This document shows, one piece after another, positions 15,191-59,651 of a DNA stretch of 64,000 nucleotides. The stretch lies in NCBI RefSeq assembly GCF_011045215.1, contig NZ_CP049201.1. The stretch is one strand, 5' to 3'. The notes below the pieces were generated by a model. That model was given only the letters and a program-made list of their open reading frames with translations, was not told where the DNA came from and did no database searches. The position numbers and the translations under genes are program-made. Source of the DNA: Escherichia coli. Lineage in GTDB: Bacteria; Pseudomonadota; Gammaproteobacteria; Enterobacterales; Enterobacteriaceae. Position 1 is the stretch's first letter. Every line of letters starts with the position of its first letter.

Positions 15191-15215
15191 TTGCCGGATG
15201 GCACGCATCCGGCAA
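15191..15215. terminator. bidirectional hairpin between convergent yceI and yceA
   Basis: TTGCCGGATG-GCAC-GCATCCGGCAA perfect inverted repeat in the 41-nt gap. Confidence 0.65.
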
Positions 15216-15221
15216 TGATAT

Positions 15222-16274
15222 TTATTCCGTTGGATCAGGAATGCCCAGTGTTGTATTCAGACGTCCACGAGACTTATTAAAGATCTTATTGCCATTTTCA
15301 CGTCCTGCCCGACGGCGTCGCTGTTCTTCTGGCGGTAACGCGCTTTCTTCGCAGCAAATCTCACTACAACAACCTTTGTATTTTTCCGCACATACTGGAC
15401 ACTGAATAAACAGCAGGTGGCAGCCATCATTTTTACAGTTGGTATGGCTGTCGCACGGCGCGCCGCACTGGTGGCAATGCGCGATAATCTCATCCGATAT
15501 ACGTTCGCCCATCCGCTCGTCAAAAACAAAATTTTTGCCAATAAAACGCACCGGCAAGCCCTGCTCGCGCGCCTTACGGGCGTATTCAATAATTCCGCCC
15601 TCGATATGCCAGACTTTGTTGAATCCGTTATGTTTCATCCAGGCACTGGCCTTTTCACAACGAATGCCGCCGGTGCAGTACATGACGATTTTTTTATCTT
15701 TATGTGCCTGCATCATCTCGACTGCTTTTGGCAGCTGCTCACGGAAGGTATCTGCCGGAATTTCGAGCGCGTTTTCAAAGTGCCCCACTTCATACTCATA
15801 GTGGTTACGCATGTCGATAAATAGTGCATCGGGATCGTCAAGCATGGCGTTCACTTCCGCCGCTTGCAGATACTCACCAACATTGCTGGCATCAAAGTGA
15901 GGATCGTCAATACCGTCGGCAACAATGCGATCGCGTACCTTCATGCGCAGTACCCAGAAAGATTTCCCGTCATCATCCAACGCGATATTCAGGCGTAAAC
16001 CCTCTAAAGCCGGGTCGAAGGCATAGAGCTGCGCGCGAAATGTTTCAACATTGCTCGCAGGTACGCTGATTTGCGCGTTAATGCCCTCATGCGCCAGATA
16101 CACTCGCCCAAAAACATTCAGCGCGGTAAACAGCTGATATAAAGCGTCACGGGTCGCCTTAGGATCGGCGATGTGGAAATACTTGTAAAACGAAATGGTG
16201 GTTCGCGGTTCGCTCTCAGCCAACATTTTGGCTTTTAGCGCGTCGTTGGAAATGCGGTTGTGTAACACTGGCAT
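15222..16274 (-). CDS. trhO: rhodanese-domain tRNA uridine(34) hydroxylase YceA/TrhO
   Basis: ORF track 15222..16328; residue 19 Met gives 350 aa [33 protein letters not shown]... Confidence 0.9.
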
Positions 16275-38158: not shown

Positions 38159-38380
38159 TCAGTTCAGAGTGACGCTCATCAGCCGGACATACGGGCCAAA
38201 ACTGTCCTTACGGCGTTCTGCAAACACGGCCAGCACACCGGGAATATCCTGCACTTCACGACCGGTATACGCCTCAGCACTGCCGTGCCAGCGGTATTTG
38301 CCGGTACAGAACGGAAAAAGACGGGATGCAGGATGTTGTTGGTGAATACGCATGGCTTCACCACGGGTGATAATTTTCAT
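38159..38380 (-). CDS. YeeT-like protein (DUF987)
   Basis: ORF track 73 aa, MKIITRGEAMRIHQQHPASRLFPFCTGKYRWHGSAEAYTGREVQDIPGVLAVFAERRKDSFGPYVRLMSVTLN. Confidence 0.85.
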   Translation of the reverse strand: MKIITRGEAMRIHQQHPASRLFPFCTGKYRWHGSAEAYTGREVQDIPGVLAVFAERRKDSFGPYVRLMSVTLN

Positions 38381-38448
38381 GGTGGGATACCTCTGAAGAC
38401 AGAAGATAAAAGTGAAAACAGGTGTGATGTGGTTGTGACGGTGACGGG

Positions 38449-38940
38449 TTAAAGCAGACCGTGTTCCGCAAAGGAGAAAACCTGGTTGCCTCCGACTATC
38501 AGATGGTCCGGCACCCGGATGTCCACCAGGGCCAGCGCCTGTACCAGACGTTCGGTGATAAGCCGGTCTGCCTTACTGGGTGTGACTTCACCGGACGGAT
38601 GATTGTGTGCCAGCACCACGGCTGCGGCATTGTGATACAGGGCGCGTTTAATCACTTCCCGGGGATGGACTTCCGTGCGGTTGATAGTGCCGGTGAAGAG
38701 GGTTTCACCGGCAATCAGCTGATTCTGGTTATTCAGATACAGCACCCGGAATTCTTCACGCTCCAGTCCCGCCATGTTCAGAATCAGCCATTCCCGTGCC
38801 GCATGCGTGGAGGTGAAGGCCACGCCGGGTTCATGAAGATGGCGGTCCAGGGTTTTCAGGGCCCGCTGAATGAGACTGCGCTCGCCGGGCGTCATCTCTC
38901 CGGGCAGAAAGGAAAGCTGTTGCATTGCCCCTGCCTCCAT
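38449..38940 (-). CDS. RadC-like JAB-domain protein (YeeS/YkfG/YfjY family)
   Basis: ORF track 163 aa with HNHPSGEVTPSKAD (JAMM-like HxHPSG) motif; alternative ATG at 38925 (MQQLSFLPGEMTPGERSLIQRAL...). Confidence 0.88.
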   Translation of the reverse strand: MEAGAMQQLSFLPGEMTPGERSLIQRALKTLDRHLHEPGVAFTSTHAAREWLILNMAGLEREEFRVLYLNNQNQLIAGETLFTGTINRTEVHPREVIKRALYHNAAAVVLAHNHPSGEVTPSKADRLITERLVQALALVDIRVPDHLIVGGNQVFSFAEHGLL

Positions 38941-39426
38941 TCAGTCGATGATGCGCATAATGGCGCTGCATTCCGGATGTTGCAGGGCGTAATCCCGCAA
39001 CCGATAATAATGGACCGTCATGGCATAACACTCCGTACGACAGGCATGATGACTGTACGTCATCAGACAGGCGGCAATGCCGGCGGCTTCCGGACTCATT
39101 TCAGCGCGGTTACCGTTCATGGCATTGAACAGTACCCATGTTTCGTCATCATCGTCATCCGGTTCGGGTGCCATAAATGCCCCGCCGTTGTTCAGGGTGT
39201 ACAGATTCCAGATACCACCGCAGTAGTCTTCGCACAGACGGTCCATCCAGCCGAAGACACGGGGTTCCAGGGTCACCCACTGTGGAATGAGGCCAAAGTG
39301 CTGCGGCCAGAAGCTGATGCGCTGTTCATCAGGGACGGGAGTGGCAACCAACTGAGACTGGTTATTCCCTGATGCAGTAGTTACGGAAACAGAAGGTGTG
39401 GTGGAGCTATGCGAAAAGGTTGTCAT
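38941..39426 (-). CDS. antirestriction protein, ArdB/KlcA family (YfjX/YafX-like)
   Basis: ORF track 161 aa; C-terminal 120 aa (RISFWPQHFGLIPQWVTLEPRVFGWMDRLCEDYCGGIWNLYTLNNGGAFMAPE...HYYRLRDYALQHPECSAIMRIID) match recalled YfjX/KlcA. Confidence 0.85.
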   Translation of the reverse strand: MTTFSHSSTTPSVSVTTASGNNQSQLVATPVPDEQRISFWPQHFGLIPQWVTLEPRVFGWMDRLCEDYCGGIWNLYTLNNGGAFMAPEPDDDDDETWVLFNAMNGNRAEMSPEAAGIAACLMTYSHHACRTECYAMTVHYYRLRDYALQHPECSAIMRIID

Positions 39427-39517
39427 GAGATGATTCCTTATAAAAAGTAAATGAATGGAAGAATGCCTGGGGATTGGTACAGACGTGAGTCAGGGCTGCA
39501 CTTTCAGGGAAACAGCA

Positions 39518-40336
39518 TTAGCGCATGCTCTCCAGCAGCGTTTCTGCCATCACCCACAATGCGCGATTGAGCTTAATGTCCGTGTCGATGCTGTGAATGG
39601 CACGGGTGTGGATACGTTTTCCTTTAGCGCTGCGACCGGAAATTCCGCCTTTCAGCATATTCTCCTGAATGGTCTGATAAGCACTCCACAGGTCCTTACC
39701 GTAATCCTCCCTGCGTCGTGGTGTCAGAATGTCGGCGGTGGTGACGGGCTGATGTTCGTCACCATAACGGTAAGTCAGTGCCGCCTGTGCCAGCGCCTGG
39801 TGTGCCGGTGGCGGCAGAATCAGCGACTGCATGGCATCACGCTTTTCCTCAATCCGGTCAAAAACGCCCACCACTTCGTAAGCCCCTTCAATAACTTTCT
39901 CCACCACGTCTCCCCGGTGCGGAACACGCACCTCTCCCAGAGACTGACCGCAGACGCACCCGTTCTGACAAACGAATCTGAAGTAACCCGGCAGCATCTG
40001 GTAGCTGGAGGTACCGTCATGGGAATTGAGCAGGATGATTTCCGGGACATGCTGTCCGTTTATCTCTCCGGCCCGCCGCAGACGCAGCATGTGTTTGGTA
40101 TACCCCCGGCGGCCCGGGTCACGTACGCGGGTCTGGCAGGCGAAGAAGGGCTGAAAGCCCTCCCGCTGCAGACTTTCCAGCACGGTGATGGTGGGGATAT
40201 ACGTATAGCGTTCACTGCGGGAGGTATGCCGGTCTTCCCCAAAAATACCGGGTACATAGTGCATCAGCTCTTCATGTGTCAGCGGACGGTCACGGCGTAT
40301 CTGGTTCGCATAACCAAAACGACTTGCTAATCGCAT
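39518..40336 (-). CDS. DUF932-domain protein (YafZ/YfjQ-like)
   Basis: ORF track 272 aa, MRLASRFGYANQIRRDRPLTHEELMHYVPGIFGEDRHTSRSERYTYIPTITVLESLQREGFQPFFACQTRV... Confidence 0.75.
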   Translation of the reverse strand: MRLASRFGYANQIRRDRPLTHEELMHYVPGIFGEDRHTSRSERYTYIPTITVLESLQREGFQPFFACQTRVRDPGRRGYTKHMLRLRRAGEINGQHVPEIILLNSHDGTSSYQMLPGYFRFVCQNGCVCGQSLGEVRVPHRGDVVEKVIEGAYEVVGVFDRIEEKRDAMQSLILPPPAHQALAQAALTYRYGDEHQPVTTADILTPRRREDYGKDLWSAYQTIQENMLKGGISGRSAKGKRIHTRAIHSIDTDIKLNRALWVMAETLLESMR

Positions 40337-40544
40337 GATCTGCTCCTTATGAATGATTAAGCGGTATAAATGAAAAAGCCGCAGCTCCCGGAGAAGACGC
40401 GGCCTGATGGATGATGTTTATTGTCTGAGGTACCCTTCACGGGCGGGCCACGCATTAAGCTGTTATGACAGCAACCGCCTGCCCGTATGAGAAAGATCCT
40501 TCAGCCAGGACATACTCTGTGTAACCCGGCATATCTGTTTTCTC

Positions 40545-40585
40545 CTGATAAATAAAAAGCCTCTGCCACGCGTTGTGACAGAGGC
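40545..40585 (-). terminator. terminator after the secreted-protein gene
   Basis: hairpin GCCTCTG-N11-CAGAGGC with T-run on the minus strand. Confidence 0.6.
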
Positions 40586-40610
40586 TGAAGCATGAAACTG
40601 ACTTCAGGGA

Positions 40611-41066
40611 TCAGTTAACGTTTTTTCCGGAAACGGTAATTAGCAGTGGATGGTAGTCCTGGGGATCGAAAACCGATAACGGCAGACTGACACGATGGCC
40701 GTTACTTTCTTCAGTTGCTTTAATGATTTCGGTTGTGGCGACATTTTCCACGCACTCCGTTTCCAGAAATGCGTCTGTGGTTCGCGTGGCATCACTGTCA
40801 CCAAAGGCTTCCGTTTCCATTTTTCTGGTCACCAGCCTCTGACCATATTTGTCTTTGAGTTGCAGAGTGATGGTGAGGGGGCCAAATCCTTCTCCGTTTC
40901 CGCCATTATCCAGCCGGAACTGGTAAGCACAAATATTTCCCGGGAGCCATATCGTATCTGTATTGCGTATACTGATGTAACGTTGATCCTGTGCCCGGAG
41001 TGGGGCAGACCACGTTAACCCCAGAATGACGCCGGTAATAATGCAGGTTTTGAACAGGTGAATCAT
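40611..41066 (-). CDS. hypothetical secreted protein
   Basis: ORF track 151 aa, MIHLFKTCIITGVILGLTWSAPLRAQDQRYISIRNTDTIWLPGNICAYQFRLD...; predicted cleavable signal peptide; no family recognised. Confidence 0.6.
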   Translation of the reverse strand: MIHLFKTCIITGVILGLTWSAPLRAQDQRYISIRNTDTIWLPGNICAYQFRLDNGGNGEGFGPLTITLQLKDKYGQRLVTRKMETEAFGDSDATRTTDAFLETECVENVATTEIIKATEESNGHRVSLPLSVFDPQDYHPLLITVSGKNVN

Positions 41067-41141
41067 GGTATTTACCTCTCTGAGTCATGACGATGACACT
41101 GACAAATCAGGTGATAAAACGTAAAAGGTGCAGAATACTCG

Positions 41142-50309: not shown

Positions 50310-52748
50310 ATGGCTATCAAAAAAACCGAACTCTATTCTTCCCTGTGGGCAAGCTGCGACGAACTGCGTGGCGGGATGGACGCCAGCCAGTACAAAGACT
50401 ATGTACTGACCCTGCTGTTTATGAAGTACGTTTCCGATAAGTATAAAGGCGATCCTTACGGGATGATCGTGATACCCAAAGGAGCCAGCTTTGACGATAT
50501 GGTTGCGCTGAAAAATGACAAAGAGATCGGCGACAAAATCAACAAAATCATCCACAAGCTGGCGGAAGAGAACGGCCTGAAGGGCGTCATCGACGAAGCC
50601 GACTTTAACGACGAAGATAAGCTCGGCAAAGGCAAGGAAATGATTGACCGCCTGAGCAAGCTTGTCGGTATCTTTGAAGGGTTAAATCTCTCCAGCAACC
50701 GGGCCGAAGGCGACGATCTGCTGGGCGATGCCTATGAATATCTGATGCGTCACTTCGCAACCGAATCCGGTAAGAGTAAAGGGCAGTTTTACACTCCAGC
50801 GGAGGTGTCACGTATTCTGGCGAAGGTGATTGGTATTACTCCCGATACTCCGCAAGATGCAACGGTTTATGACCCAACCTGTGGCTCTGGTTCGCTGCTG
50901 TTGAAAGTGAATGATGAAGCCCGGCGCGGACTGTCGATTTTCGGCCAGGAGATGGATAACGCTACCAGTGCGCTGGCGCGGATGAACATGATTCTGCATA
51001 ACAATGCCACCGCGAAAATCTGGCAGGGCAATACGCTGAGCGATCCGCAGTGGAAAGAGGCGAACGGCAAACTGAAAGCCTTCGATTTTGCCGTGGCGAA
51101 CCCGCCTTTTTCCAATAAAAACTGGACCAACGGGCTGACGCCGAAAAAAGATCCGTTTGAACGCTTCGGCTGGGGTATTCCGCCGGAAAAAAACGGCGAT
51201 TATGCTTTTTTGTTGCATATCATTAAAAGCCTGAAAAGTACCGGCAAAGGCGCGGTGATCCTGCCCCACGGCGTACTGTTTCGCGGTAACGCCGAAGCGA
51301 ATATCCGTGAAAATCTAATCAAGCAGGGCTATATCAAAGGCGTTATTGGTTTGCCAGCCAACCTGTTTTACGGCACCGGCATCCCGGCGTGCATCATTGT
51401 GATTGATAAAGAGCACGCCCACAGCCGCAAAGGCATTTTTATGATCGACGCCAGCCGGGGCTTTATCAAAGATGGCAACAAGAACCGCCTGCGTAGCCGA
51501 GATATTCACCGCATTGTGGACGTGTTCAACCATCAGCGAACGGTACCTGGCTACAGCCGGATGGTGCCCTCCAGCGAGATCGCCGGAAATGATTACAACC
51601 TGAATATTCCTCGCTATATCGAGAGCGGCGAGCCGGAAGATTTACACGATCTGACCGCGCACTTACAGGGCGGTATTCCGGCACGCGATGTGGATGCTTT
51701 GCAAGATTACTGGCGGGTATTCCCTGCCCTGCGCAACGTGCTGTTTGCTGACGACCGTCCCGGTTACTGTCGGGCGCAGGTGAACGCGCAACAGGTGAAA
51801 CCGACCATTCTGGCGCATCAGGAGTTTAAGGATTTTGCCACCCGCAGCCTGCTACCGTTTAAAGCGTGGGTGAAAGAGGCAAGTCTGGAAGAGATTCGCA
51901 AAGGTGATAAACCCAAAGCGCTAATCCACGATATCAGCGAAATGCTATTGGCGCAGTACGCCAACAGTGAGTTGCTGAACAAATACAGCGTGTACCAGAT
52001 CCTGATGGATTACTGGACTGATGTCATGCAAGACGATGTGTATGCGATTATGCAGGATGGCTGGCAAGCCGCCGCGCAAATCCGCGAGCTTCAGCCGGTG
52101 AAAGGCAAAGATGGCAAAAACATCTGGAAAGAAACGCACGATTTCGAGTTTACCAAACGGCGCTACAAGGCCGATGTGCTGCCCCGTTCGCTGGTGGAAA
52201 TTCGCTGTTTCCCGGAACTGCTGGATGCGCTGAACCGCGCGCAGGAGCGCAGTGAAGAAGCCAGTCGTCAGCTAGTGGAATTCATCGAGGAGCAGGCAGG
52301 TGAAGAGGATCTGCTGGCCGAGGCGAAGAACGATAAAGATAAGGTGACGCAAAAGCTGGTGAATGCCCGTCTAGCACAGTTAAAGAAAACCACTGCCGGC
52401 CCAGATGAGCTGGCAGTGCTGAACCGCTGCCTGGCGCTAATTAAGGCCGAAGCCAGTGCGAAAAAAGCGCTGAAAGCCGCACAAGAAGCGCTGGATCGGG
52501 CGGTGTTTAAACATTATCCCACGCTGGATGAAGCAGCGATTAAAACGCTGGTAGTGCAGGATAAGTGGCTGGCAACGTTGCAGGCAGGGATCAAGGCGGA
52601 GATTGAGCGTATTACCCAGCAACTGGCGTCGCGCGTAAAGGAGCTGGAAGAGCGTTATGCTGAACCGTTGCTAGCGCTTGAAGCCTCCGTTGAGGCGTTG
52701 AGCGAGAAAGTGGCCGGGCATTTGCGGGCGATGGGGCTGGAGTGGTGA
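50310..52748 (+). CDS. hsdM: type I restriction-modification system methyltransferase subunit HsdM (long form)
   Basis: ORF track 812 aa; AdoMet motif DPTCGSGSLL and catalytic motif VANPPFS read directly; stop overlaps hsdS start. Confidence 0.9.
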   Translation: MAIKKTELYSSLWASCDELRGGMDASQYKDYVLTLLFMKYVSDKYKGDPYGMIVIPKGASFDDMVALKNDKEIGDKINKIIHKLAEENGLKGVIDEADFNDEDKLGKGKEMIDRLSKLVGIFEGLNLSSNRAEGDDLLGDAYEYLMRHFATESGKSKGQFYTPAEVSRILAKVIGITPDTPQDATVYDPTCGSGSLLLKVNDEARRGLSIFGQEMDNATSALARMNMILHNNATAKIWQGNTLSDPQWKEANGKLKAFDFAVANPPFSNKNWTNGLTPKKDPFERFGWGIPPEKNGDYAFLLHIIKSLKSTGKGAVILPHGVLFRGNAEANIRENLIKQGYIKGVIGLPANLFYGTGIPACIIVIDKEHAHSRKGIFMIDASRGFIKDGNKNRLRSRDIHRIVDVFNHQRTVPGYSRMVPSSEIAGNDYNLNIPRYIESGEPEDLHDLTAHLQGGIPARDVDALQDYWRVFPALRNVLFADDRPGYCRAQVNAQQVKPTILAHQEFKDFATRSLLPFKAWVKEASLEEIRKGDKPKALIHDISEMLLAQYANSELLNKYSVYQILMDYWTDVMQDDVYAIMQDGWQAAAQIRELQPVKGKDGKNIWKETHDFEFTKRRYKADVLPRSLVEIRCFPELLDALNRAQERSEEASRQLVEFIEEQAGEEDLLAEAKNDKDKVTQKLVNARLAQLKKTTAGPDELAVLNRCLALIKAEASAKKALKAAQEALDRAVFKHYPTLDEAAIKTLVVQDKWLATLQAGIKAEIERITQQLASRVKELEERYAEPLLALEASVEALSEKVAGHLRAMGLEW

Positions 52749-54088
52749 TGGTGGATTTAATGGTGAATGAGCAACGGTCGAGTACGGCGGGGAAAGATGT
52801 GCCTGCGGGGTATAAACTGACTGAGGTGGGCGTGATTCCTGAGGATTGGGATTGCGTACCATTTGGTAATCTGTTTAAAACAAACACAAAGAAAAAAAAA
52901 GTCAGCGATTATGAGCTAGTTTCATTTATTGGGATGCAGGATGTTAGTGAAGATGCACAATTAAAAAATAATACTCAACTTCCTTTTAAAGAAGTTAAAA
53001 GTGGTTTTACTTACTTTGAAAAAGGGGATGTTTTATTAGCTAAAATAACCCCTTGTTTTGAAAATGGAAAAGGATGTCATACCGCTGATTTACCTACTAA
53101 TGTAGGTTTTGGGAGTACGGAATTTCATGTATTAAGGGAAAATGAAGACTCCGATTCTCGCTTCATCTATTTTTGGACAACTGATAAAAAATTCAGAGCA
53201 TCACTGGAATCTGAAATGGTGGGAAGTGCGGGACACCGTCGTGTGCCGCTAGTTGCTATAGAAAAATATTTGATTCCATGTCCCCCAAATTTGCAAGAGC
53301 AAAGTGCTATTGCTGATTCATTATCTGATATTAATAATTTTATTCTAGCTCTAGAAAAGCTTATCGTTAAAAAACAAGCCATTAAAACCGCTACTATGCA
53401 GCAACTACTGACGGGTAAAACCCGTTTGCCACAGTTTGCGTTACGCAAAGATGGCTCTGCTAAGGGATATAAAAAGAGCGAGTTGGGGGCGATTCCTGAA
53501 GATTGGGTAGTCACAAGCATTGGACAATTTACTGACTGCTGTGCTGGTGGAACTCCGAGTACTAAAATTTCAGCATATTGGGGAGGAACTCATCCTTGGA
53601 TGAGTTCCGGCGAATTACACTTAAAACAAGTGTATGCTGTAGCCGATTATATAACCGACGAAGGGCTTGTTAACTCCAGTACAAAGTATGTGCCTAAAAA
53701 TTCTGTATTAGTCGGATTGGCAGGACAAGGAAAGACTCGAGGGACTGTAGCAATTAATCGCATTGAATTATGTACTAATCAGTCTATTGCTGCGATTTTC
53801 CCCAGCAAACATCATTCCACAGAATTCCTGTTCTATAACCTCGACAGTCGTTATGAGGAACTGAGAAGTTTATCTACTGGTGATGGGGGGCGTGGTGGGT
53901 TGAATCTTACTATTATCAGGAAATTACATCTTGCATTTCCGCCAAAAGAAGAACAAGCCGCCATCGCCGCCATCCTCTCCGATATGGACAAGGAAATCCA
54001 GATCCTGCAACAGCGTCTGGACAAAACCCGCCAGCTTAAGCAAGGGATGATGCAGGAACTGTTAACCGGGAAAATCCGCTTAATATAG
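52748..54088 (+). CDS. hsdS: type I restriction-modification system specificity subunit HsdS
   Basis: ORF track 52742..54088 (448 aa); ATG at 52748 overlaps the hsdM TGA; two target-recognition-like halves with AT-rich codon usage. Confidence 0.88.
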   Translation: MVDLMVNEQRSSTAGKDVPAGYKLTEVGVIPEDWDCVPFGNLFKTNTKKKKVSDYELVSFIGMQDVSEDAQLKNNTQLPFKEVKSGFTYFEKGDVLLAKITPCFENGKGCHTADLPTNVGFGSTEFHVLRENEDSDSRFIYFWTTDKKFRASLESEMVGSAGHRRVPLVAIEKYLIPCPPNLQEQSAIADSLSDINNFILALEKLIVKKQAIKTATMQQLLTGKTRLPQFALRKDGSAKGYKKSELGAIPEDWVVTSIGQFTDCCAGGTPSTKISAYWGGTHPWMSSGELHLKQVYAVADYITDEGLVNSSTKYVPKNSVLVGLAGQGKTRGTVAINRIELCTNQSIAAIFPSKHHSTEFLFYNLDSRYEELRSLSTGDGGRGGLNLTIIRKLHLAFPPKEEQAAIAAILSDMDKEIQILQQRLDKTRQLKQGMMQELLTGKIRLI

Positions 54089-54100
54089 AAGGGAAAGCAC

Positions 54101-54757
54101 ATGGCTTATGATTACAGCGCCAGCCTCAACCCGCAAAAAGCTCTGATCTGGCGTATCGTCCATCGGGACAATATCCCGTGGATTCTGGATAACGGGCTGC
54201 ACTGCGGCAACAGTCTGGTGCAGGCGGAAAACTGGATCAATATCGGCAACCCGGAGCTGATCGGCAAGCGTGCCGGGCATCCGGTACCTGTCGGAACGGG
54301 CGGGACACTGCATGACTATGTGCCGTTTTATTTTACCCCCTTCTCGCCAATGCTGATGAACATCCACAGCGGGCGCGGCGGCATTAAGCAACGCCCCAAT
54401 GAGGAGATCGTTATTCTGGTCAGCAACTTGCGGAACGTGGCAGCACACGACGTGCCCTTCGTGTTTACCGACAGCCATGCTTACTATAACTGGACCAACT
54501 ACTACACCAGTCTGAATAGTCTGGACCAGATCGACTGGCCCATTTTGCAGGCACGGGACTTTCGCCGCGATCCAGACGATCCGGCTAAATTTGAACGCTA
54601 TCAGGCAGAGGCGCTAATCTGGCAACACTGCCCGATCTCTCTGCTGGATGGGATAATTTGTTACAGCGAAGAGGTCAGGTTACAATTAGAGCAATGGCTG
54701 TTTCAGCGTAATCTAACAATGTCCGTTCACACACGGGCTGGATGGTACTTCTCATGA
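54101..54757 (+). CDS. darT: DarT, DNA ADP-ribosyltransferase toxin (DUF4433)
   Basis: ORF track 218 aa; motifs [18 protein letters not shown] and C-terminal GWY(F) line up with recalled DarT; starts 13 nt after hsdS stop. Confidence 0.88.
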
Positions 54758-55821
54758 TCACATATACACAAGGCAATTTACTGGACGCACCGGTGGAAGC
54801 TCTGGTGAATACGGTTAATACCGTCGGTGTCATGGGGAAAGGCATCGCGTTGATGTTTAAAGAGCGCTTCCCCGAAAATATGAAAGTCTATGCCCTCGCT
54901 TGCAAACAAAAGCAGGTGATCACCGGCAAAATGTTCATTACCGAAACCGGGGAACTGATGGGACCGCGCTGGATTGTTAATTTTCCGACCAAACAGCACT
55001 GGCGCGCTGATTCCCGCATGGAGTGGATTGAAGATGGCTTGCAGGACTTACGCCGCTTTTTGATTGAAGAGAACGTGCAGTCCATCGCCATTCCACCACT
55101 GGGCGCAGGCAACGGTGGTTTGAACTGGCCGGACGTTCGGGCGCAGATTGAATCTGCCCTTGGCGACCTTCAGGACGTTGATATCCTGATTTACCAACCG
55201 ACTGAAAAATACCAGAACGTTGCCAAAAGCACTGGCGTAAAAAAGCTCACTCCCGCCAGAGCCGCCATCGCTGAACTGGTGCGTCGCTACTGGGTATTGG
55301 GGATGGAGTGCAGCCTACTGGAAATCCAGAAACTGGCCTGGCTGTTACAACGCGCCATTGAGCAGCATCAACAGGACGATATCCTCAAACTGCGGTTTGA
55401 AGCTCACTATTATGGCCCCTATGCGCCCAATCTGAACCATCTGCTTAATGCGCTGGACGGCACCTATCTAAAAGCCGAGAAACGCATCCCGGACAGCCAA
55501 CCGCTGGATGTGATCTGGTTTAACGATCAAAAAAAAGAACACGTTAATGCGTATCTGAACAACGAAGCCAGAGAGTGGCTACCTGCGCTGGAGCAGGTCA
55601 GCCAGTTAATTGACGGCTTTGAATCGCCGTTTGGTCTGGAGTTGCTGGCAACCGTAGACTGGTTGCTGAGCCGTGGCGAATGTCAACCAACGCTGGATTC
55701 CGTTAAGGAAGGACTGCACCAGTGGCCTGCGGGCGAACGCTGGGCCAGCCGTAAGTTGAGGCTGTTTGATAATAATAATCTGCAATTTGCCATTAACCGC
55801 GTAATGGAGTTCCATTGCTGA
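54754..55821 (+). CDS. darG: DarG, macrodomain antitoxin (DNA ADP-ribosyl glycohydrolase)
   Basis: ORF track 54742..55821; ATG at 54754 overlaps darT stop (ATGA); N-terminal macrodomain signature [39 protein letters not shown]; about 200-aa C-terminal domain. Confidence 0.88.
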
Positions 55822-58800: not shown

Positions 58801-58935
58801 AAAAGGGCAGAGTGGATTGGCGATCGTTTTAAAGAACGGGAAATTGCCAACGCATTACGTGAAGAGACCGCCAGCTATAATATTGATATTGATGAGGTGA
58901 TAGCGCTTGCCCGTCAGCAGAAGGAATATCACTGA
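55840..58935 (+). CDS. hsdR: type I restriction enzyme endonuclease/translocase subunit HsdR
   Basis: ORF track 1031 aa; nuclease-like DLVLYVNGIALGVIELK and helicase DECH (FVFVDECHRTQ) motifs read; starts 19 nt after darG. Confidence 0.92.
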   Translation: MSTVGQRERATQQRLIQFFVEDLGYRHLSHRTGYTGNSNIDTNILSAWLKRRGVNDTLITRALRQLDSAAALGEGKKLYYANKEVYRLLRYGVKDKEGAGEQNQTVWLIDWANPQANDFAIADEVTVKGEYCKRPDLVLYVNGIALGVIELKRSSVHVSEGIRQNLDNQKKTFIRDFFTTMQLVMAGNDTQGLRYGTIETPEKYYLEWKEDNPGDYTHKLDFHLSRLCSKSRLLDIVHNYIVFDVGVKKLCRHNQFFGVEAAKQHIARREGGIIWHTQGSGKSLTMVWLAKWIRENVPNSRVLIVTDRTELDEQIESVFMGVNEDIYRTSSGNDLIATLNHPNPWLICSLVHKFGCRSEAEDNAATDAFITELQQSLTKTFRAKGDLFVFVDECHRTQSGKLHNAMTAILPDALFIGFTGTPLMKKDKKKSVEVFGPYIHTYKFDEAVADGVVLDLRYEARDIDQYLTSEKKVDDWFEAKTRGLSNLARTQLKQKWGSMQKLLSSKSRLEQIVNDILLDMDTRPRLMDGRGNAMLVCSSIYQACKVYEMFSQTELAGKVAIVTSYRPDAASIKGEETGEGLTEKLSKHATYRKMLADYFEQSEEKAAARITEFEREVKQRFIEEPGQMRLLIVVDKLLTGFDAPSATYLYIDKTMTDHTLFQAICRVNRLDGEDKEYGYIIDYKDLFRSLDKAITDYTTGAFDDYDRDDVAGLLKDRLEQAQLDLDSALEMVRSLCEPVKTPRSLQDYQHYFCGKSGENQTSLNEKEALRLTFYQCVARLLRAYASIANEMPEAGYTAEEVESIRAEVAEFEKLRYEIKLTSGDLLDMKRFEPAMRHLLDMYVRADGSEVLMDFEELSLIELIVEKGLAATVALPDDIRNNQDAMAETIENNVRKTIVDENPVNPKYYGRMSQLLDELITLRRQNALNYQQYLERIRDLCKQVIRPEQTAGACYPATMDTQAKRAFYDNFGHDEVLATRIDTTIRYTKRAEWIGDRFKEREIANALREETASYNIDIDEVIALARQQKEYH

Positions 58936-59651
58936 TGCCAATCATGCAAATAGGCTCGTTACACTTGCTGGTCAACCGTAAGGCGATTAAGAATCTGCAT
59001 ATCAGCGTGCTGCCGCCTGATGGCAAAGTCCGCGTTTCAGCGCCGGAACATATGACGGAGACGGCGATTCGTATGGCGGTTGCTTCACGCTTTCGCTGGA
59101 TCAGAAAACAGCAGCAGGATTTCGCCAGACAGCCTCGTCAATCAGAGAGGGAAATGGTCAGCGGAGAGTGCCACTATCTTTGGGGCCGAAGATATCGCCT
59201 ACTTGTGATTGAGCGTCACGGGCGTCACGAAGTAAAAGTTGCGGGAAATAATAAGCTCCAGCTTTATGTTCAACCGGGAACCCGTGATGAAAATAAGGCA
59301 TTGGCGTTAAGTGAATTTTATCGACATGAACTAAAACAGCAGGTGGCTAAGCTTCTACCTGAATGGCAAGACCGAATCGGTGTTCCCCTAACATTCTGGG
59401 GCATCAAAAAGATGAAAACCTTTTGGGGCACCTGTAACACTACAACAAAACGAATCTGGCTCAATCTGGAGCTAATTAAGAAGCCGCCGGAGTGTCTGGA
59501 GTATATTCTGGTGCATGAACTGGTTCATCTTCTGGAACGTCACCATAATGCTCGCTTCCGGTTGCATATGGATCGGTTTATTCCTGACTGGCGTGAGCGT
59601 CGGGATTTGTTAAATAATATGCCGTTAGCGTTTGAGGCATGGGAGTATTGA
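58935..59651 (+). CDS. DUF45/YgjP-like zinc metallopeptidase-domain protein
   Basis: ORF track 238 aa; HEXXH motif ILVHELVHLLERHH; ATG overlaps the hsdR stop by 1 nt. Confidence 0.8.
   Translation: MPIMQIGSLHLLVNRKAIKNLHISVLPPDGKVRVSAPEHMTETAIRMAVASRFRWIRKQQQDFARQPRQSEREMVSGECHYLWGRRYRLLVIERHGRHEVKVAGNNKLQLYVQPGTRDENKALALSEFYRHELKQQVAKLLPEWQDRIGVPLTFWGIKKMKTFWGTCNTTTKRIWLNLELIKKPPECLEYILVHELVHLLERHHNARFRLHMDRFIPDWRERRDLLNNMPLAFEAWEY

Follow-up and report, generated by a model that had tools for sequence, protein, structure and literature searches.

In 2025 Zhang et al. reported that the RRDM island of enteropathogenic Escherichia coli (EPEC) E2348/69 confers protection against phages and that RptR acts as its repressor (NAR 2025, PMC12255303). 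The paper does not comment on the length of the HsdM subunit or on a C-terminal module in it. For Vibrio cholerae it was reported that the type I system of VPI-2, with embedded TgvAB, methylates GATGN6CTT and restricts DNA (PMC11411939, PMC12409362). A third system with related gene logic is EcoprrI-PrrC, in which PrrC is held latent by EcoprrI (discussed in bioRxiv 10.1101/2024.01.29.577857). Here we describe an island of the RRDM type in a stretch of 64,000 nucleotides from E. coli (contig NZ_CP049201.1 of assembly GCF_011045215.1; this whole stretch is in the following called the window), and in particular its hsdM gene, which encodes a type I DNA methyltransferase subunit of 812 amino acids. 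The protein is a genuine type I HsdM, already annotated and located in a published defence island, and 812 amino acids is the standard length in an ancient, cross-phylum and very large HsdM subfamily; its identification is therefore routine. We consider it probable that the best overall description is that of an annotated RRDM-type HsdM of family-norm length with an inserted module that would act as an assembly scaffold.

The window shares with the EPEC island (HsdM WP_000985463.1) the order of the seven genes, rptR-hsdM-hsdS-darT-darG-hsdR-M48, which form a co-oriented operon, and the promoter with the −35 box TTGAAC and the TAGCTA operators. The seven open reading frames (ORFs) in the published order, together with TAGCTA repeats overlapping the −10 box, identify the locus as an RRDM island. 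A contig from V. cholerae encodes a long HsdM whose C-terminal region is 57% identical to that from the window, in the order long hsdM-hsdS-two GmrSD-like genes-hsdR (1030 amino acids)-YgjP-like peptidase. The V. cholerae cargo is thus a type IV GmrSD-like pair where the window has DarTG, and on the V. cholerae fragment no rptR was seen. Because the gene layout agrees, and by layout alone, this contig is likened to the VPI-2 system (HsdM VC1769). The long-HsdM family is in this sense functionally validated at the level of the system, by EPEC RRDM and, via gene layout, by V. cholerae VPI-2.

A sequence-only reading of the window had placed an 812-amino acid ORF at 50310-52748 and methyltransferase motifs within its first 300 residues, and both findings held. 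The ORF runs from ATG to TGA; in the HsdM translation the S-adenosylmethionine (AdoMet) motif I, DPTCGSGS, starts at residue 188 (nucleotides 50871-50894) and the catalytic motif IV, NPPF, at residue 264 (nucleotides 51099-51110). Motifs I and IV lie in an N6_Mtase domain, the protein has an HsdM_N domain, and an hsdS with two target-recognition domains and an hsdR stand alongside. The TIGR00497 hsdM model gave 282.8 bits (cutoff 242.75), with a match that stops at residue 444. The DNA is 100% identical to that for RefSeq WP_000985465.1 (‘type I restriction-modification system subunit M’), and identical copies are present in many complete E. coli genomes. The gene was found in 257 of 5426 complete E. 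coli genomes, with 74 records at 99% identity or more, at varying chromosomal positions, which is consistent with horizontal transfer.

Residues 1-441 constitute a canonical HsdM, composed of an N-terminal helical domain and an AdoMet-dependent N6-adenine methyltransferase domain. By analogy with the solved type I enzymes, two copies of HsdM and one of HsdS would form an M2S1 methyltransferase, which would recruit HsdR to restrict unmodified DNA. That this M2S1 complex would methylate adenine at N6 in a bipartite site is suggested by analogy with the EPEC island and the V. cholerae relative.

The sequence-only reading considered the length unusual. It is not, because an 810-position model in PADLOC (PDLC03027, MTase_I) matches the protein from end to end (model 1-810 to residues 1-812, 1425.6 bits), because full-length relatives have 798-846 amino acids, and because the region beyond the catalytic domain is encoded in at least 566 species genomes. 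This region (residues 442-812, hereafter C-region) alone matches positions 442-810 of PDLC03027 with an E value of 4.4e-136 and is common to three further long PADLOC models; many other PADLOC models of type I methyltransferases are 650-1236 positions long. When the C-region alone was searched against 1.84 billion cluster representatives (50%-identity clusters), 2276 representatives matched at E ≤ 1e-3 and 241 at E ≤ 1e-30. In the full-length relatives the region spans from about residue 445 to the C-terminus, and in every match with a domain assignment it is joined to N6_Mtase. The species scan, with one genome per species and a 7-sequence alignment as query, found carriers among the Gamma-, Alpha-, Beta- and Deltaproteobacteria as well as in cyanobacteria, Planctomycetota, Chloroflexota, Gemmatimonadota, Poribacteria, Coriobacteriia and methanogenic archaea. 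The surprise expressed over the length has thus largely been answered by an established family in which it is standard; the module itself is uncharacterised.

These distribution data exclude that the long ORF is an artefactual fusion. No support was found for a read-through, for an assembly error or for a fusion that recently joined hsdM to some unrelated gene downstream, and we assign these a probability close to nil. Some database relatives are split into several ORFs (P0103). That split turned out to be a frameshifted copy, in which three adjacent fragments make up one hsdM. In 248 complete E. coli genomes a match spans 80% or more of the gene with 80-100% identity, the architecture is continuous in hundreds of species and across phyla, and the structure prediction with AlphaFold2 is confident across the junction. 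P0103 (L002, 4749-7191), a decayed copy with hsdM broken into three ORFs by frameshifts, had also been considered as a stand-alone module, and was rejected as such for the same reason; no free-standing copy of the module was found. In another relative, P0258 (1054 amino acids), a rearranged copy, the N-terminal half of HsdR is joined to the end of HsdM plus the module.

The positions of the genes and of the domains of HsdM are compiled in Table 1.

Table 1. The RRDM-type island of the window: regulatory region, genes, and domains of HsdM
Feature	Position	Strand	Evidence
Island promoter and RptR operator	49965..50012	+	Sequence matches EPEC RRDM description, PMC12255303
rptR, 79-aa HTH_73 repressor	50031..50270	+	Pfam HTH_73 E 3.5e-28; RefSeq WP_001431807.1 at equivalent position
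hsdM, long-form type I N6-adenine DNA methyltransferase subunit, 812 aa	50310..52748	+	ATG-to-TGA ORF
HsdM N-terminal helical domain, residues 10-121	50337..50672	+	Pfam PF12161 (HsdM_N) E 2.4e-17
Catalytic N6_Mtase domain, residues 135-441	50712..51632	+	Pfam PF02384 E 6.7e-104
Module part 1, residues 448-633: compact helical subdomain with two small beta elements	51651..52208	+	AlphaFold2 prediction, pLDDT ~98 over most
Module part 2, residues 635-740: acidic antiparallel coiled-coil arm (helical hairpin)	52212..52529	+	AlphaFold2 prediction
Terminal helices 741-783 and 787-808, end motif KVxxHLxxMG	52530..52745	+	AlphaFold2 prediction
hsdS, 446 aa, two target-recognition domains	52748..54088	+	Pfam Methylase_S E 7.9e-36, two stretches
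darT, DNA ADP-ribosyltransferase toxin, embedded cargo	54101..54757	+	NCBIfam NF048013, 262.9 bits vs cutoff 150
darG, macrodomain antitoxin, embedded cargo	54742..55821	+	NCBIfam NF048014, 451 bits vs cutoff 250
hsdR, translocase-endonuclease, 1031 aa	55840..58935	+	TIGR00348 546 bits; Pfam HSDR_N, SWI2_SNF2, T1R_D3-like
YgjP-like/M48 (SprT-like) zinc metallopeptidase	58935..59651	+	Pfam PF01863 E 1.4e-61

What sets the protein apart from the type I methyltransferases of known structure lies beyond the catalytic domain. The solved HsdMs (3LKD, 7VRU and 7BST; EcoKI and EcoR124I) align with E values of 1e-77 to 1e-21 up to about residue 450, where similarity ends, and have only about 30-55 residues past this point. 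The M subunit of EcoR124 matches residues 86-449 (222.7 bits) and shows no similarity further on. EcoR124I M (7BST, type IC), 3LKD, PacII M1/M2 (7VRU) and EcoKI M (2AR0/2Y7C) have the N-terminal and catalytic domains in common with the long form, and their C-terminal amphipathic helix ends in a similar h-L-x-x-h-G motif, but they are without the module of about 330 residues (about 454-786) that in the long form separates the catalytic domain from the terminal helix. The addition is larger than the approximately 280 amino acids estimated from the sequence alone: 371 amino acids past the catalytic domain are without domain assignment, and the excess over short HsdMs is about 315-340 amino acids. 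In this comparison the close identity with the EcoR124I subunits that would indicate type IC was not found, and the 330-residue module sets the architecture apart. The alignments support placing the protein in an HsdM lineage separate from EcoKI, EcoR124I, S. thermophilus 3LKD and PacII. The suggestion of an atypical family or added domain was right insofar as the protein differs from the solved HsdMs and carries a conserved, folded module, and wrong insofar as its length is normal for the subfamily.

With an alignment of 150 sequences AlphaFold2 predicted the full-length HsdM with a mean local confidence (pLDDT) of 92.8 and a predicted template modelling score (pTM) of 0.87, and the C-region alone with a pLDDT of 96.8. 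The C-terminus had been described as charged and coiled-coil-like on the basis of two peptides, LAEAKNDKDKVTQKLVNARLAQLKK and IKAEIERITQQLASRVKELEERYAEPLLALEASVEALSEKVAG, both of which are present in the translation. In the predicted structure this description is appropriate for residues 635-808, the last approximately 175 amino acids, to which the long coiled-coil-type helices are confined, but not for residues 448-633, half of the C-region, which form a compact globular subdomain. The latter contains the family signature Y559..YQxxMxYW..DD..W585, in which Y559, Y562, Q563, M566, Y568, W569, D575, D576 and W585 are near-invariant. The arm is predicted to consist of the helices 635-662, 681-693 and 698-738. 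Its tip loop is conserved (consensus GExGLL..A.NDKGKVTK; GEEDLLAEAKNDKDKVTQK in the window protein), and it is acidic family-wide, with a median isoelectric point (pI) of 4.7 and a median charge of −7.5 per 100 residues. The relatives P0130, P0166, P0226, P0209 and P0239 have insertions or duplications of 50-120 residues in the arm, near window residues ~675-700; the insertion in P0130 resembles a duplication of the tip motif, in which NAKGKIAAKDVKERL repeats the unit DKGKVTK..V..RLK.

Searches for relatives of the C-region outside HsdM gave little. In Pfam, residues 442-812 yielded only chance coiled-coil matches at E ≤ 10, and no meaningful match was obtained in NCBIfam and PHROGs, so that no family of these three collections covers the region. 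Neither the 78-residue tail nor a 7-sequence profile of the module matched a sequence in the PDB, and the AlphaFold2 model of all 371 amino acids found no solved fold relative in the PDB with Foldseek (best E 0.16). The one real match in the BFVD library of viral structures was a fragment of an adenine methyltransferase from a phage contig. A literature search for a description of the HsdM extension found nothing relevant.

In the structures of EcoR124I and PacII, HsdM ends in a short helix that lies against the coiled coil of HsdS. We propose that the terminal helices 741-808 of the long form would dock on HsdS in the same way, and that about 330 residues have been inserted ahead of them with retention of the docking role. 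The module would then be a structural scaffold that enlarges the helical core formed by M and S and offers a surface for contact with other proteins, HsdR being the most plausible partner; it would be neither a DNA-binding nor a catalytic element. That the insertion may lie ahead of the usual HsdS-binding helix is suggested by natural fusions and by the last helix, which weakly resembles the C-terminal helix of short HsdMs. At least eight cluster representatives have a Methylase_S target-recognition domain immediately after the module; these fusions of a long HsdM with a single target-recognition domain include P0177, P0171, P0142, P0150, P0152, P0169, P0190 and P0241. The fusion gene of P0177 (L087, 376-3420) is followed by hsdR and a YgjP peptidase gene, with no separate hsdS, which implies a homodimeric enzyme that would recognise a symmetric site.

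The second observation concerns a 507-amino acid HsdM encoded on Klebsiella plasmids, which is 41% identical to the window protein over residues 3-450 and then has a single 30-residue helix. Its tail reads ...EMAGYLKELGY, as compared to ...EKVAGHLRAMGLEW in the window HsdM. A profile of the last helix of the long family aligns in register, weakly, with the last helix of 507-amino acid HsdMs, and in a shuffle test with three sequences 0, 8 and 56 of 1000 shuffles reached the score. It is therefore no more than suggestive that the last helix corresponds to the C-terminal helix of the short HsdMs, and the fusions argue more strongly than the profile for a position of the module next to HsdS.

Several points weigh against the scaffold proposal. 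The tail helices are weakly similar, with scores from −1 to 11 bits, and significance was not reached with the Klebsiella/E. coli sequence that is closest. The idea that the M tail or arm might be homologous to the coiled-coil helices of HsdS, prompted by the motifs P-x-L-x-E-x-x-I and PLPxL seen by eye, was rejected as unsupported (hhalign probability <5%, P about 0.009). The near-invariant polar residues of the globular subdomain, H451, D460, E505, Q563, D575 and D576, could mark a functional site instead of a scaffold. In fold searches with the whole model the coiled coil may mask a match of the 186-amino acid globular part.

The elongated, helical shape of the module would also suit a role on DNA, either as an extra clamp or ruler that would change the way in which the methyltransferase surrounds DNA or, the arm being negatively charged, as an acidic, autoinhibitory DNA mimic that would block a DNA-binding surface before target binding. 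The acidic arm is reminiscent of DNA-mimic proteins. Direct binding to DNA is, however, opposed by the same charge, since the arm is acidic across the family, and we regard an action on DNA or its mimicry as very unlikely.

The scaffold proposal has also to be weighed against the genetic context of long HsdMs, for which 57 related loci were analysed in which M, S and R could be placed in order. The order is hsdM-hsdS-[gap]-hsdR in all 57, and the M48/YgjP peptidase gene directly follows hsdR in 54, so that HsdS, an HsdR of ~1030 amino acids and the M48 peptidase are the constant partners of the long HsdM. Gaps of at least 700 bp on one side of hsdS or the other, towards hsdM or towards hsdR, are present in 47 loci, and the ORFs in them are almost all co-oriented with hsd. 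In 40 loci hsdS and hsdR are separated by 1 kb or more, in 8 by less than 300 bp; a second insertion site, between hsdM and hsdS, holds more than 500 bp of inserted DNA in 15. The cargo spans 50 Pfam families and includes Schlafen/HATPase_c_4, YhcG/DUF1016, GmrSD, AAA_21, DarTG, Fic, Zeta toxin, HEPN AbiU2 and SMODS/AGS_C. The long-HsdM operon type is thus a hotspot for embedded genes, and the site between hsdS and hsdR had earlier been described as a recombination hotspot (PMC12255303).

One could therefore imagine that the module is a coupling or regulatory platform by which the cargo (in the window DarT/DarG) or else the M48 peptidase is tethered to the restriction complex or silenced on it, the cargo being set free once the restriction-modification enzyme comes under attack; PrrC is held latent by EcoprrI in a comparable way. 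EcoprrI-PrrC has the same gene logic, hsdM-hsdS-cargo-hsdR, with the anticodon nuclease PrrC instead of DarTG as cargo; its HsdM is of normal length. A physical coupling of cargo and enzyme has been shown for PrrC, which makes this system the precedent for such a platform (bioRxiv 10.1101/2024.01.29.577857), and the frequent co-oriented cargo, the recombination hotspot and the almost constant M48 gene are in line with it. Three observations speak against it. One conserved module is unlikely to bind the products of 50 Pfam families; the eight loci with an hsdS-hsdR gap below 300 bp have no cargo there and still keep the module; and the Klebsiella plasmid system with the short 507-amino acid HsdM also has an embedded gene and a related M48/SprT peptidase. 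We consider the platform unlikely. The same low probability is given to the related proposal that the module acts as a sensor or switch through which the restriction complex would signal its state to the M48 peptidase or to the inserted cargo. If this were true, the long-HsdM lineage would be a dedicated chassis for embedded immunity, and the H451/D460/E505/Q563/D575/D576 cluster and the tip loop GExGLL..NDKGKVTK would be functional sites.

An M48 link specific to the long-HsdM family was considered and rejected, since the same kind of peptidase follows hsdR in the Klebsiella short-HsdM system. There a YgjP/M48/SprT-like peptidase gene (L084, 8926-9681) is found after hsdR on hundreds of plasmids. 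In L084 (K. pneumoniae plasmid p1856-1) a YecA-family gene lies between hsdS and hsdR of the short-HsdM operon, and two DUF262 (GmrSD-like) genes are located just 3′ of the peptidase gene.

The modest interest that remains lies in the module. One of the type I methyltransferase lineages with the widest distribution, present in pathogen islands such as those of EPEC and V. cholerae, carries a confidently folded module of 330 residues. The mechanistic models of type I enzymes are all based on short HsdMs (EcoKI, EcoR124I). From a structure of the long form it would become clear whether the rules of M-S-R assembly transfer, and perhaps also whether there is a link between the module and the striking frequency of embedded defence genes in these operons.

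In the promoter of the island the −35 box TTGAAC occupies positions 49965-49970, followed by AGCTAATTT at 49985-49993 and AGCTAACTT at 49994-50002. The second −10 box is one base off, AGCTAACTT in the window versus AGCTAATTT as published (PMC12255303). Perfect TAGCTA palindromes occur twice, at 49984 and 49993; after them comes a third, degenerate copy, TATCTA. The mechanically called rptR ORF begins at 49965 with a TTG that in fact opens the −35 box. The start of hsdS overlaps the stop of hsdM in TGATG, and the RefSeq start of darG is at 54754.

The genome nearest to the window among those compared is that of strain CFSAN061761 (L001), whose hsdM is 100% identical to that of the window and which is 96.7-99.5% identical in the regions flanking hsdS. 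Its DarG and M48 peptidase have the RefSeq accessions given in the EPEC paper (for DarG WP_000634203.1; the window is 99.5% identical to CFSAN061761 across that stretch), whereas the HsdM, HsdR, DarT and HsdS accessions of EPEC RRDM are not those of CFSAN061761. The alignment to CFSAN061761 breaks inside hsdS (query offsets 15197-15638, window ~53500-53950), from which it follows that the second target-recognition domain is a different allele. Judged from this break, the recognition sequence probably differs between strains with identical hsdM. Since a target-recognition domain of HsdS is not shared even with this nearest genome, the window system probably also recognises another sequence than EPEC RRDM does. 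Upstream of the island, at 38300-49800, comparison with CFSAN061761 revealed CP4-44-like mobile-element genes, namely yeeS and genes for an antirestriction protein, a DUF932 protein, IrmA, an Ag43-family autotransporter and a GTPase.

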